64,000 bases of DNA, taken from NCBI GenBank assembly GCA_965200315.1, contig OZ241362.1, positions 3,168,001 through 3,232,000 of the forward strand. The letters are read 5' to 3'. The notes beneath the pieces are model-generated. The model was given only the letters and a program-made list of their open reading frames with translations, ran no database searches and was not told the origin of the DNA. The translations under genes and the position numbers were made by a program. Of the stretch, positions 35,176-62,264 are shown one piece after another; position 1 is the stretch's first letter; every line of letters starts with the position of its first letter. This DNA is from Candidatus Latescibacterota bacterium (lineage in GTDB: Bacteria; Latescibacterota; UBA2968; UBA8231).

Positions 35176-35534
35176 TGGTGGAGGCGGCGGGAATCGAACC
35201 CGCGTCCGAGACCGGTTCTACCGAAATATGCTACGTGCGTAGTCGGCCTTAGTTATCTCGCCTGTTGCGCTGCCGGCCAACGGGCCACGCAACAGGCCAG
35301 CCCGAAAAATCTCGCCCCATTCCCTCGGGCGAAGGTTTGGGACCAGCCTGCTAAGAGATGGCATTGGGGCCTGCCGCGCAGGCTCAACAGACCCCAATGG
35401 GCTGCTCTAAATTTAGGCAGCCAGAGCGTACGTGTTATTTTCGTCGCTTAATTGTTTCCCGAGGATTTACGAGGTGTCGGGACCTCGGCACGCAATTTGG
35501 GCTTCTCCGACCCCGTCGAAGCCAAGTCGCCCCC
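35176..35534 (-). ncRNA. ssrA: Transfer-messenger RNA
   Basis: 5' GGGGGCGACTTGGCTTCGAC; 3' GCGGGTTCGATTCCCGCCGCCTCCACCA; internal tag (A)DENNTYALAA* at 35445-35413. Confidence 0.97.
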
Positions 35535-59900: not shown

Positions 59901-60893
59901 ATGGACAAAATTCGCGTGGGATTTATCGGCTGTGGTGGAAACGCCAGCGGGCACCTAGGGAGAGTGCTTGACATCCCCGAGACCGAAGTGGTGGCGCTGT
60001 GCGATGTGGATCAGGCCAGCCTACAGCGAGCTAAAGAGCGCAACTCGCAGGCCGCAGCGTTGCCGGAGTTTACCCACTACCAAAAGATGCTGGAGCAAGT
60101 CGAACTGGACGCGGTAGAGATTTCCACGCCGCACACATTGCACTTTGAGCAGATTATGGCTGCGCTGGACAAAGGGCTGCACGTGCTGACCGAAAAGCCA
60201 ATGGTCTGTACTGTCGATCACGCGCACCAAGTTATCGCCAAAGCCGAGAAGACCGGCAAGGTCCTGATGATCTCCTATCAGCGGCACTTGCAGGCGCAGT
60301 ACCGCTATGTGCGCAATCAGATCGCGGCCGGGGAATTGGGGGATATCCAGTTTATATCGGCGCTCCAAGACCAGAAGTGGCATCAGGGGACGATTGGGCT
60401 GTGGCGGCAGCAGATGGCGCTGTCGGGCGGCGGACAGCTCAACGATTCGGGAAGCCATCTACTAGACATTGTGTTGTGGATGACCGGGCTGGAGGTGGCA
60501 GAGGTGCAGGCCTACATGGACTATTTAGACTCTGAGGTGGACATCAACTCGGCGCTGTCGCTGCGCTTTCGCAACGGCGCGCTGGGGACGATTGCGGTGG
60601 TGGGCAACTCGCCGACCGGCGGAATCTGGGAGGACATCACCATCTGGGGGACCAAGGCCGTGGTCTACATTCGCCGGGGAGAGGTCTTTTATAAGACGCA
60701 GCACAGCAATGAGGTGTACGAAGTAAACAACTTGCCCGGCTCGACGACGCCCGACCAGAATTTCATCGACGCGATTCTCGGCCGCGATCAGGTGCAGGTG
60801 CCCCCCGAATGCGGCCTGCGGGTCATTGAACTGACCGAGGCAGCTTGGGCCTCGGCCGCTAGCGGGCAGCCGGTGAAAGTAAAAAGCATTTGA
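59901..60893 (+). CDS. Gfo/Idh/MocA family oxidoreductase
   Basis: VGFIGCGG, HVLTEKP, GGGQLNDSGSH. Confidence 0.92.
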   Translation: MDKIRVGFIGCGGNASGHLGRVLDIPETEVVALCDVDQASLQRAKERNSQAAALPEFTHYQKMLEQVELDAVEISTPHTLHFEQIMAALDKGLHVLTEKPMVCTVDHAHQVIAKAEKTGKVLMISYQRHLQAQYRYVRNQIAAGELGDIQFISALQDQKWHQGTIGLWRQQMALSGGGQLNDSGSHLLDIVLWMTGLEVAEVQAYMDYLDSEVDINSALSLRFRNGALGTIAVVGNSPTGGIWEDITIWGTKAVVYIRRGEVFYKTQHSNEVYEVNNLPGSTTPDQNFIDAILGRDQVQVPPECGLRVIELTEAAWASAASGQPVKVKSI

Positions 60894-60919
60894 CATGGTT
60901 CTTCGGCGTTTGTCATATT
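60890..60919 (+). promoter_or_regulatory. Sigma70-type promoter for the intergenic RNA
   Basis: TTGACA (60890-95), 18 nt, TG-N-CATATT (60914-19); same architecture as the next promoter TTGATT...TGTCATATT at ~61244. Confidence 0.65.
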
Positions 60920-60924
60920 AAACG

Positions 60925-61226
60925 CAAGACGGGTTCAGGTGCTATAGCTCCTGTTACCGCCACGCTGAGGCTCGAGGCTACGCGAGCGAGCCAGCCCGGC
61001 TTTGTAATTGGCCGCAACGACGCGCAGAGTTGGAGCATAGATTATGAGGCGCGCACAAGCGAAAGGAGGTGGTCCATTGAGTAGTAATTGTACCGCAGGG
61101 AGGTTGGTCACTTGATCAACTCCAGGTGATTGACTACCTGGTCAGAAGTTATGTCGCCGAGGCGACACCGCTTCTGAGAGTACAGCCGGGCGCACCCCAC
61201 CTTAGCGGGTGCGCCCGGTTTTTTTT
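60925..61226 (+). ncRNA. Unclassified structured RNA containing an extended Shine-Dalgarno and a 12-codon ORF
   Basis: Own promoter and terminator; multiple hairpins; AAAGGAGGTGGTCC then TTG...TGA (61077-61115, MSSNCTAGRLVT). Confidence 0.6.
61186..61226 (+). terminator. Intrinsic terminator
   Basis: CCGGGCGCACCC-9nt-GGGTGCGCCCGG followed by T8. Confidence 0.93.
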
Positions 61227-61292
61227 GCCCGCGCTGCACTAAGTTGATTTCCACGCGGTATTTTTGTCATATTGTCCGCAAGGAGGCCGTCT

Positions 61293-62264
61293 ATGAAACG
61301 CATTGCCAAGCCCGCAGGGGCCTATAACATCGTGGTAGAAGAGGTCGAGATTCCGGCCATTGCCCCGACCGAGATTTTGATTCGCGCCGAATGTTCGCTT
61401 ATCAGCCGCGGCTCGGAGATTTGGCGGCGCTACGTGCGCGAAGAAGCGATCGACCACCGCTCTATGGGCTACTCGCTGGTGGGCCGCGTCGAAAAGGTGG
61501 GCGCGGAGGTCGAAGAGTTCAGAACCGGTGAGCTGGTCGCGGCCCTCGCGCCGCATGCCGAGTACGTAGCGGTCGAAGTCGCAGCCAGCCGGCACAAGCC
61601 AGCGGCCGTGCGCCTGCCAGCGGGCCTGTCGCCCGAGGCGGGCACCTTCTGGCCGCTGGGAACTAGCTCGGTCCTGTGGATGTGGGAGACCGAGGCCGGC
61701 CCGGATGATGCCGTGGTCATTCAGGGGCAGGGCTTGGTCGGCAGCGGTTGTATGCAGGCGGCCAAGGCACAGGGCGCGGGGCGCGTCATCGGGGTTGATA
61801 CCTTGCCCTTGCGCTGCGAACTAGCGCACGAGTTGGGGGCCGACGCGGTGATAGACGCCAGCGCCGGCGACCCTGTTGCACAGGTCTTAGAGCTGACGGA
61901 CGGAGCGGGTGCCGACATCGTGGTTGAAGCCGTGGGCGGGCGGGCCGGGGCGCAGGCTTTTGCCGAGGCGCAAGACATGCTCAAGCGCGGCGGCCTCTTG
62001 CAGGTGCTGGGCCTATACGAAAACGAACCTCTGCCGCTCTATTCAGAAAAAATCATGGGCAAGCGCCTCATAGGCAGCTACCTCGACGCCAGTCGGCGGC
62101 CCGAAGGATCGGCACGTACGCTAGAATTGTTGGCTACGGACCAGATCCAATTCGCCAAGATGATCACCCACCGCTTCCCCTACACAGAAGCGGCCGCCGC
62201 TTTCGACTTGCTCTACAATCGGTTGGGCGCGACGATGGCCGTATTGTTGACGTGGGACAACTGA
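61293..62264 (+). CDS. Zinc-binding (MDR) dehydrogenase
   Basis: SLISRGSE, MGYS..G, GQGLVG, GADIVVEAVG, ITHRF; ATG after AAGGAGG. Confidence 0.9.
   Translation: MKRIAKPAGAYNIVVEEVEIPAIAPTEILIRAECSLISRGSEIWRRYVREEAIDHRSMGYSLVGRVEKVGAEVEEFRTGELVAALAPHAEYVAVEVAASRHKPAAVRLPAGLSPEAGTFWPLGTSSVLWMWETEAGPDDAVVIQGQGLVGSGCMQAAKAQGAGRVIGVDTLPLRCELAHELGADAVIDASAGDPVAQVLELTDGAGADIVVEAVGGRAGAQAFAEAQDMLKRGGLLQVLGLYENEPLPLYSEKIMGKRLIGSYLDASRRPEGSARTLELLATDQIQFAKMITHRFPYTEAAAAFDLLYNRLGATMAVLLTWDN

Follow-up and report, generated by a model that had tools for sequence, protein, structure and literature searches.

What is encoded in the roughly 300 nucleotides (nt) that separate an oxidoreductase gene from a zinc-type dehydrogenase gene in a bacterium of the Latescibacterota, and what is to be made of a transcript that carries a complement of the 16S rRNA tail directly in front of an open reading frame (ORF) of only 12 codons? 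The locus lies at positions 60926-61226 of the forward strand in a 64,000-nt stretch of contig OZ241362.1 (positions 3,168,001 to 3,232,000; assembly GCA_965200315.1, Candidatus Latescibacterota bacterium), which is referred to below as the window. A sequence-only reading of this stretch had proposed a stand-alone structured RNA that could be a 30S-binding regulatory RNA, a ribosome trap or a micropeptide gene. Our analysis confirms an RNA gene of about 300 nt at this place, present in a single copy in the genome, and relates it distantly to CC2171, a family of small RNAs (sRNAs) in Rfam. As for what the RNA does, the account that we favor and consider fairly probable is that of a translated switch that responds to ribosomes, stands alone, is highly expressed and is built from look-alikes of the Shine-Dalgarno (SD) and anti-SD strands. 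The coordinates of all features are collected in Table 1.

The promoter and terminator that had been proposed to enclose the RNA are both in place. In our promoter scan, the promoter, which combines an 18-nt spacer with a TG at 60911-60912 and CATATT at 60914-60919, scored 10 of 12 matches in addition to the TG, and only two promoter-like sites, this one included, were found within 60500-61700, as compared to 0.2 in shuffled sequences. The position of the promoter is kept across the genus and also in other genera, where it reads TTGAC..TATATT. At the other end, the arms CCGGGCGCACCC (61186-61197) and GGGTGCGCCCGG (61207-61218), followed by eight T residues (61219-61226), can be read directly from the sequence. 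The terminator scan listed 0 terminators at the 3' end of the RNA, a miss that is probably due to the 9-nt loop; the stem does form in the single-sequence fold, as well as in the consensus fold of 29 genus sequences, where one of its pairs is compensatory (CG 23, UG 5, UA 1). The fold z-score of the 302-nt stretch is -4.7, and none of 100 shuffled sequences folded as well. The RNA is also a stand-alone gene, as had been suggested, given its own promoter and terminator, a downstream gene with its own conserved promoter-like element (kept in the genus alignment, yet under the threshold of the promoter scan) and neighbors that differ among genera.

The element that gives the locus its character is a long complement of the 16S tail. 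The genome contains a single 16S gene, the 3' end of which reads ...GCGGCTGGATCACCTCCTTTCT, and GAAAGGAGGUGGUCCA, at 61061-61076, pairs with this tail over 16 consecutive nt with one G-U pair. The anti-SD complement that had been noted earlier (AAAGGAGGTGGTCC, 61062-61075) was thus real, and is longer than had been stated, at 16 rather than 14 nt. We refer to this element as SD1. Its duplex with the 16S tail has a calculated energy of -29.0 kcal/mol, as compared to -12.1 kcal/mol for SD2, an internal GGAGG within the small ORF, and -11.2 kcal/mol for segment C, an SD-like stretch further downstream. No second copy of the SD1 15-mer is found in the 5.36-Mb genome, save as the reverse complement of the 16S gene, and the element is nearly invariant in the host's family, as well as common to the CC2171 consensus. 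Within the 5' domain, an anti-SD-like ACCGCC is predicted to pair with GGUGGU of SD1 (RNAalifold columns 39-44 with 152-157; duplex energy of -10.1 kcal/mol). As only one-sided changes are seen in these columns, this pairing is neither proven nor refuted. Antisense pairing of ACCGCAGG, which follows the ORF start, to 16S helix 45 was considered as well and rejected, since the RNA and its own 16S are alike only in the tail.

The TTG at 61077, 7 nt after GGAGG, opens the frame MSSNCTAGRLVT where the sequence-only reading had located it, and this reading frame is kept in the family (f1). The start lies 6-7 nt after the SD1 element GGAGGTGGTCC across the family and 11 nt after it in one genus. Among 60 distinct family sequences, 59 have an ORF that stops directly behind the segment that we call B (..CACC, followed by TGA), with the sixtieth needing a neighboring ATG. 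ORFs of 9, 10, 11, 12 and 13 codons occur in the family, and at least nine separate length changes can be counted, all of which are multiples of three, where the unconstrained expectation would be about (1/3)^9, a figure that should be taken as a rough inference with no formal test. Two such in-frame indels are found within the genus itself (-3 in L023 and L024, +3 in L021). The stop codon is mostly TGA, with TAA in four sequences (L206, L211, L214 and L216) and TAG in one (L217). As the terminal G-C pair of the helix formed by B and C is lost when the stop is TAA or TAG (3 unpaired cells, columns 59/83), the stop codon is kept at the cost of a base pair. Depending on the genus, SD2 and the stop codon are 9 or 10 nt apart, with the frame being restored upstream.

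The peptide, on the other hand, varies freely. Residues 4-5 differ even within the genus (NC, KR, NR, TC), the peptides of different genera are unlike one another (MSSNCTAGRLVT, MSSCIPAGGATT, MSSSIPLRRSTT, MESTGRSIT), and the C-terminus (GRLIT, GGATT, RRSTT) follows the frame in which SD2 and B happen to be read. Codon 2 encodes Ser, written AGY in f1. Because frame, start and stop are kept while the peptide varies, we argue from this comparison that the small ORF is translated, but not for the sake of its peptide. Two further ideas about the ORF did not hold. Re-initiation at a UUG overlapping the stop codon (UUGA) was rejected, as other genera have CUG or no start there, and a type I toxin mRNA does not fit, as MSSNCTAGRLVT and its relatives are polar and variable rather than hydrophobic, although an antisense partner was not searched for.

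How the RNA may fold around this ORF was assessed in 47 distinct family sequences, using a MAFFT alignment that was blind to structure, and by considering three mutually exclusive helices, namely B:C, C:D and SD1:B. Segment B resembles the 16S tail GAUCACCU (6 of 8 letters in this strain, 7 of 8 in most of the genus and 8 of 8 in some relatives) and segment C is AGGUGAUC-like. As B is tail-like and C is SD-like, helix B:C resembles an SD/anti-SD duplex. Helix B:C (61104-61114 with 61123-61133) is paired in 96.5% of cells, with two-sided changes in 4 of 11 pairs (28 cells), and its covariation score of 0.339 compares with 0.213 in shuffled alignments, none of 500 reaching it, and with no more than 0.131 in slid registers. 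For example, the helix reads UUGAUCACUUG/CAGGUGAUCRA in the genus, as opposed to GCGACCACCUG/CAGGUGGUCGC, UCGACC../..GGUCGA or UGUACC../..GGUACA elsewhere. Helices C:D (61122-61128 with 61135-61141) and SD1:B are paired in 99.7% and 98.7% of cells, respectively, in both cases with no two-sided changes and with covariation not above that of the shuffles. In the stretch 61055-61186, the fold that contains B:C is the minimum (-49.2 kcal/mol), followed by hairpin 1 together with C:D (-46.9 kcal/mol) and by SD1:B together with C:D (-37.1 kcal/mol). The first two, which are 2.3 kcal/mol apart, are predicted to be near enough to interconvert. In this genus and a few others, hairpin 1 has another tail look-alike (9 of 10 letters) as its 3' arm, GAUCAACUCC.

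Around these competing helices, a closing stem joins ORF codons 3-6 to the stretch just 5' of the terminator. Its GUAC/GUAC is invariant in the genus, and other genera have CAAUCA/UGAUUG or AUACC/GGUAU at the same place. Hairpin 3 shows compensatory pairs within the genus (AU 17, GU 8, CG 2, GC 2), in addition to inner-stem changes, and is absent in some genera (e.g., L030). Within the multibranch 3' domain that had been drawn from the sequence, hairpins 1 and 2 compete with the longer, covariation-supported B:C. A simpler arrangement is seen in genus g9 (f3), where the strand of SD2, which has the stop codon at its end, is itself the partner of a CCCACCUC strand further downstream. The long irregular hairpin that had been proposed for the 5' domain stands only in part. 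Its inner GGCTCG/CGAGCC stem (P2) has one compensatory position (UA 13, UG 9, CG 7, in the 29 genus sequences), while the long arms CTATAGCTCC/GGAGCATAG were rejected, as they are not complementary in other species of the genus. The span from promoter to SD1 is 100-170 nt in every family member examined, although its sequence differs among genera.

The host belongs to a small class, represented by 132 species genomes, and is not an alphaproteobacterium. By BLAST, 28 of the 30 genomes in the genus gave a match, with identities of 80-93%, and 4 of 6 genomes from elsewhere in the family gave partial ones. We then built R1, a covariance model of the 3' domain, from 25 sequences. Of 60 family genomes sampled, 53 had a single copy each by this model, and these come from 16 of 18 genera (with G000 included); over the whole class, R1 matched 67 of 75 genomes in f1 and 3 of 56 in the other three families. 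A core-only model built from the 47 distinct sequences (R2), run on 151 genomes sampled from the phylum, matched 58 of 63 genomes in f1, 17 of 30 in f2 (all in genus g8, 17 of 20 genomes, at about 27.6 bits each), 2 of 2 in f3, 1 of 19 in f4 and 0 of 36 in f5-f14. It should be noted that genomes with no model match are often incomplete. The lone f4 match sits in an apparent coding sequence and is probably false; the others suggest that diverged forms of the RNA core occur in two sister families. Homologs with covarying stems and with the start codon at a kept distance from SD1 thus exist in the family. As a separate observation, the leaders of four g8 loci (L248-L251) and of a locus titled Eisenbacteria (L090) measure only about 13-15 nt after a TTGAC promoter, the ORFs of these loci have a common ending, GGAGGTGGCTGT(C/A)G(T/C)TAG, and the -35 region of L090, TTGACATGGTCCTCCG, resembles the TTGACATGGTTCTTCG of the window.

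As to whether the RNA belongs to a described family, no Rfam family matched it at the gathering score, the sole such match in the window being tmRNA (ssrA, 35176-35534 on the reverse strand, 204.4 bits, full length), which had already been noted elsewhere in the window. RNase P, SRP RNA and tmRNA, all of which had been discounted from the sequence, are absent from 60700-61400 at E<=10, as is 6S RNA. The best permissive match in this interval is RF01867 (CC2171 sRNA), at 61053-61217, with 27.6 bits (E of 7e-4 for 701 nt), well short of the gathering cut-off of 75 bits. In a genome-wide search (5.36 Mb) with RF01867, the locus is the top match, at the same 27.6 bits (E of 1.3e-3), and of 20 diverged family loci, 10 match at E<=1 with 22.3-37.4 bits, none exceeding 75. 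The earlier statement that the RNA belongs to no named family hence holds at the gathering score, yet overlooked a sub-threshold relative with the same layout. Judging by sequence, CC2171 is the nearest described relative of the RNA, which by the Rfam criterion is not a member. The CC2171 match does not explain the finding away, as CC2171 itself is without known function.

The likeness to CC2171 is one of layout. The CC2171 consensus begins with ..GAAAGGAGGUG(A/G)UCCA and passes directly into a start triplet and a short ORF, as in the window RNA; the single-stranded 5' consensus GAAAGGAGGUGAUCCA and start triplet are indeed found, with 61061-61079 aligning to RF01867 positions 9-26 at high posterior probability. 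In both RNAs, a closing stem links the early codons to the sequence just ahead of the terminator, inner hairpins and an intrinsic terminator are present, and cmscan aligns GUAC/GUAC, as well as CAAUCA/UGAUUG in L182, to the closing stem of RF01867. The two RNAs also differ. The CC2171 model starts 8 nt before the SD, whereas SD1 of the window RNA follows the predicted -10 box at a distance of about 135 nt, i.e., behind an extra 5' domain of this size, and the core of the window RNA runs SD2-B-stop-C-D. The sister genus g8, with a leader of some 13 nt, is unlike the window RNA in this respect (starts are predicted). The ORF of the window RNA is also short, at 12 codons versus mostly 14-26 in the relatives found by the motif scan described below.

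For CC2171, our literature searches found no functional study. One preprint describes a discrete Northern blot band for it in Methylorubrum (bioRxiv 10.1101/2022.01.24.477521), and another report lists it among the predicted sRNAs of Mesorhizobium (PMC5596092). Schrader et al. 2014 state that two noncoding RNAs predicted by Landt are translated, naming them only in Dataset S1, and that Caulobacter rarely starts translation through SD sites (PMC4117421). The second-best RF01867 match in the genome, at 19.9 bits, is of another kind. At this locus, L032 (G000:C1:3904402-3907544), which lies outside the window, GAAAGGAGGTGATTC is followed by a 25-codon ORF for the hydrophobic peptide MKKWLPLAIQIAIALLDNWPSKRHS and then by a terminator, and the locus may be a gene for a small membrane peptide or a toxin-like product.

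To see how far the layout reaches, one genome per species was scanned for GAAAGGAGGTGRTCCANTG, which yielded at least 120 loci, with titles for 80 of these. All of the following counts refer to the matches listed. Most of the 80 titles are alphaproteobacterial and 14 carry other names, namely Planctomycetota (including Kolteria and a Phycisphaerales metagenome-assembled genome), Gemmatimonadota, Acidobacteriota, Terriglobia, Eisenbacteria, Bdellovibrionota, Ktedonobacteraceae, Burkholderiales/Bordetella and a gammaproteobacterium. Twelve of these 14 loci have an ORF of 12-26 codons, structure and a terminator-like hairpin; the other two (L099 and L100) are ordinary genes of 192 and 173 residues. 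Among 118 distinct sequences, the start triplet is GTG in 97, ATG in 17, TTG in 3 and CTG in 1, the last belonging to an ordinary long gene, and the ORF measures 35 codons or fewer in 112. Codon 2 encodes Ser in 104 of 114 short-ORF rows, here written TCN. Of 111 distinct short-ORF loci, 53 have GAGG or GGAG at a distance of 5-17 nt ahead of the stop codon, as compared to 9 and 10 in two equally sized control windows, and the peptides fall into unrelated, clade-specific families. R1, when run on 100 of the at least 120 loci, gave only matches driven by SD1, of at most 25 bits, a result that is circular, as the loci had been chosen by that very motif. One Caulobacteraceae locus of the CC2171 type (L122) was seen to carry, in an inserted hairpin after the small ORF, an exact 11-nt copy of the 16S tail, GGATCACCTCC.

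Expression was addressed through sequencing runs. Of 22 listed runs with part of the stretch, 14 are on record as RNA libraries, and assembled contigs of four metatranscriptome runs from four studies were compared, each contig having a single depth figure. In three of the four, contigs on the RNA greatly exceed those on the flanking genes in depth. In run X6 (marine), the depth is 1.6e4-3.8e4 over 60943-61077, with flanks of 113 upstream and about 20 downstream; in X7 (sponge), it is 1.4e5-4.2e5 over the same positions, with flanks of 11.5 upstream and 17-56 downstream; in X1, of near-identical sequence, it is 800-2800 over 61024-61131, with flanks of 194 and 91; and in X9 (coral), it is 5-12.5 over the RNA, with flanks of 14-120. 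Taken together, these deep contigs are moderate evidence that the RNA is abundant. In X6 and X7, the depth falls 5- to 16-fold after 61077, and contig ends joined to adapters, which differ between the runs, lie at 61069, 61072 and 61076 in X6 and at 61042, 61069 and 61076 in X7, giving a weak hint that a 5' fragment of about 150 nt, terminating within SD1 or immediately past it, is stable.

These elements can be assembled into a cycle. A 30S subunit would dock through the exposed SD1 onto the TTG start, and the translating ribosome would then melt the closing stem and helix B:C. The freed C could pair with D, such that the RNA shifts to its other fold, and in this genus B could also form hairpin 1, while the anti-SD-like element of the 5' domain may cover part of SD1. 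At the stop codon, i.e., the apical end of the 5' strand of B:C, SD2 would be spaced from the P site as it is at a start, and may thus hold the terminating ribosome; upon its release, the RNA would refold. Such an RNA would report on or tie up free 30S subunits, with the act of translation and the fold, but not the peptide, being what matters, and the gain to the cell could be a gauge of free 30S subunits, a ribosome-parking buffer or a decoy for tail-binding factors. The earlier suggestions of a 30S-binding RNA or a ribosome trap would fit this anatomy.

Several points speak against the switch and should be considered when weighing it. Run X9, one of the four compared, shows no excess depth over the RNA, and the depth of a contig may sum several organisms and comes without strand or ends. 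The evidence for translation is comparative throughout. Helices C:D and SD1:B, which show no two-sided changes, are possible but unproven, and in this strain the SD1:B state lies 12 kcal/mol above the best fold, so that masking of SD1 by B is unlikely here and is considered a possibility in other genera only. As related genomes do not count as independent, our numbers overstate the support. Finally, no partner, target or phenotype was found in the literature, even for CC2171.

Of the other explanations, the one that survives best, although we consider it unlikely, is a purely noncoding, trans-acting sRNA, in which B, D and the 3' arm of hairpin 1 would pair with the SD sites of target mRNAs, or the SD-like segments would act on other RNAs, the ORF being accidental. 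The conservation of several anti-SD-like and SD-like segments is in keeping with this, as are the deep contigs in RNA libraries, such as stable sRNAs produce, and the status of CC2171, which is an sRNA in Rfam and has been seen as a discrete RNA. An accidental ORF would, however, hardly keep its frame through at least nine length changes, use all three stop codons at one position even when this costs a base pair, confine its start triplet to GTG, ATG and TTG, and encode the Ser of codon 2 by both TCN and AGY. A dual role would still be compatible with all of these points.

A decoy or operator for a protein that recognizes the 16S 3' tail or the SD/anti-SD helix appears less probable still. Proteins that could bind the tail include a 30S assembly or maturation factor, a 3' exonuclease, a platform ribosomal protein and a tail-cleaving toxin. 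Internal tail look-alikes and an SD/anti-SD-like helix that is kept with covariation would suit such a role, as would the exact tail copy in the Caulobacteraceae relative L122, and, among the 106 neighbor ORFs scanned, an RNB-domain or an RF-1-domain gene adjoins the RNA at two loci each. Yet no protein neighbor is conserved across clades, and a decoy role alone does not account for the conserved ORF.

The third option of the sequence-only reading, a functional micropeptide gene that would act through its 12-residue peptide, with the RNA structure serving only to adjust peptide synthesis, is disfavored and in our view quite improbable. Frame, start and stop are conserved and the N-terminal Met-Ser(-Ser) is widely kept, as one would expect of such a gene; nonetheless, the central residues of the peptide already differ within the genus, its C-terminal residues change with the frame of SD2 and B, the peptide families of different clades are wholly different, and the nucleotides are best conserved in elements that can be understood as RNA features. 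Least probable of all is a cis-acting leader, i.e., a translational or transcriptional attenuator of the downstream zinc-type dehydrogenase gene, since, despite a small ORF with mutually exclusive helices as in leader-peptide attenuators and recurrent neighbors in f1 (ADH_zinc_N downstream in four loci, GFO_IDH_MocA upstream in three), the RNA is ended by a strong terminator that lies outside the alternative helices, the gene that follows is preceded by a conserved promoter-like element and an SD of its own, the neighbors differ in other genera and phyla, and in X6 and X7 the depth drops about 100- to 10,000-fold from the peak over the RNA to the downstream gene.

Table 1 Features of the RNA locus in the window. 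Positions count from the first letter of the 64,000-nt stretch.
Feature	Position	Strand	Remarks
Promoter	60890..60919	+	-35 TTGACA 60890-60895; TG-extended -10 CATATT 60911-60919
RNA gene	60926..61226	+	5' end inferred from the -10 box; 3' end is the T-run of the terminator
5' domain	60926..61060	+	P1, P2 and further long-range pairs (consensus fold, 29 genus sequences)
Hairpin P1	60936-60941 with 60948-60953	+	Consensus fold
ACCGCC, anti-SD-like element of the 5' domain	60956..60961	+	Predicted partner is GGUGGU of SD1
Hairpin P2	60969-60974 with 60987-60992	+	GGCTCG with CGAGCC; consensus fold
SD1, GAAAGGAGGTGGTCCA	61061..61076	+	16-nt complement of the own 16S 3' tail, one G-U
Small ORF, MSSNCTAGRLVT	61077..61115	+	TTG start, 12 codons, TGA stop 61113-61115
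Closing stem, 5' strand, TGTAC	61089..61093	+	Within ORF codons 5-6; partner 61180-61184
SD2, internal GGAGG	61099..61103	+	9 nt before the stop codon; kept in the family alignment
Segment B, TTGGTCACTTG	61104..61114	+	5' strand of B:C; ends in the ORF stop codon
Segment C, CCAGGTGATTGA	61122..61133	+	SD-like; partner B (61123-61133) or D (61122-61128)
Segment D, TACCTGG	61135..61141	+	3' arm of hairpin 2 (C:D); like the 3' part of B
Hairpin 3, TCAGAAGT...GCTTCTGA	61142..61177	+	Inner stem GTCGC/GCGAC
Closing stem, 3' strand, GTACA	61180..61184	+	Just 5' of the terminator
Intrinsic terminator	61186..61226	+	12-bp G+C-rich stem, 9-nt loop, T8
Promoter-like element of the downstream gene	61243..61272	+	TTGATT, 17 nt, TG-CATATT; outside the RNA

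For the genomic surroundings, 232 flanking ORFs were extracted and 106 of these were scanned. In the window, a GFO_IDH_MocA oxidoreductase gene lies upstream of the RNA and the zinc-type dehydrogenase gene, with a promoter-like element and SD of its own, lies downstream. The latter, as ADH_zinc_N, was found in the f1 loci L001, L026, L169 and L174, and the former in L001, L174 and L178; the pair recurs partly in two other genera, and elsewhere the neighbors are unrelated. No neighbor gene among the 106 is conserved across clades and, as none is universal, the RNA should be regarded as an independent gene. The promoters of the RNA and of the dehydrogenase gene both carry TTTGTCATATT...CGCAAG (60908-60928 and 61262-61284), with TTGTCATATT occurring only 6 times on both strands of the genome, and this common sequence may reflect a local duplication or a shared regulatory site. 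Among the Rhodobacterales-type relatives, a Vut_1 (YhhQ-like) gene is found upstream on the same strand in 10 loci, and a small RF-1-domain gene (ArfB-like, 140-154 aa) directly downstream of the RNA in L042 and L064; in the Bosea loci L072 and L075, an RNB-domain gene (RNase R/II-like) is found downstream. A sensor of queuosine-dependent codons, an idea prompted by NAU codons and the Vut_1/YhhQ neighbor, was rejected, as the ORF of the Rhodobacterales-type clade is without such codons.

What is new here is a CC2171-like RNA outside the Alphaproteobacteria that has an added 5' domain and falls below the Rfam threshold; the CC2171 family itself was known, yet uncharacterized. The CC2171 layout reaches well beyond the Alphaproteobacteria, and the family gains several testable features, namely a near-invariant complement of the entire 16S tail, a frame-conserved micro-ORF with a free peptide, a covarying tail look-alike helix and a second SD at start-like spacing before the stop codon. 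Together, these give the family a first concrete and testable mechanism. If the RNA does sense or tie up ribosomes, this would represent a new layer of global translation control, and one that would be especially striking given the rare use of SD sites (PMC4117421) in Caulobacter, the organism of CC2171. Should the ribosome role prove untrue, the locus would still offer a clear example of an RNA that combines structure with translation.

Among known systems, the window RNA can be compared with leader-peptide attenuators and with translational attenuation of the erm/cat type, with which it shares a short ORF behind a strong SD, a largely free peptide sequence and a chain of exclusive helices (here SD1/B/C/D), one of which would be melted by translation. 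This is a likeness of possible working and not of family membership. Unlike in attenuators, no regulated gene follows the window RNA, the terminator is not among the competing helices (B:C, C:D and hairpin 1), the competing segments are themselves SD and anti-SD look-alikes, and no regulatory codon run or known stalling motif was identified in the RNA. A second comparison, by analogy only, is with 6S RNA, which mimics open promoter DNA and so ties up RNA polymerase, being likewise an abundant, stable RNA that imitates the nucleic-acid ligand of a central machine. In 6S RNA, the machine can be freed through its use of the RNA as a template for the synthesis of pRNA; in the window RNA, translation of the small ORF could play the corresponding part. 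The two RNAs share no likeness in sequence or structure, no Rfam match links them, and ribosome binding by the window RNA is a prediction. Extending the analogy, the window RNA, CC2171 and their relatives might form one class that spans the Alphaproteobacteria, Planctomycetota, Gemmatimonadota, Acidobacteriota, Eisenbacteria, Burkholderiales and the lineage of the window, a proposal that, taken as a whole, we regard as tentative and rather doubtful. Such a class would be the ribosome's counterpart of 6S RNA, in which an abundant RNA would capture 30S subunits or 70S ribosomes by pairing perfectly with their whole 16S tail, hold them at a micro-ORF with a second SD beside its stop codon and be reset by translation, with the tail look-alikes gating access.

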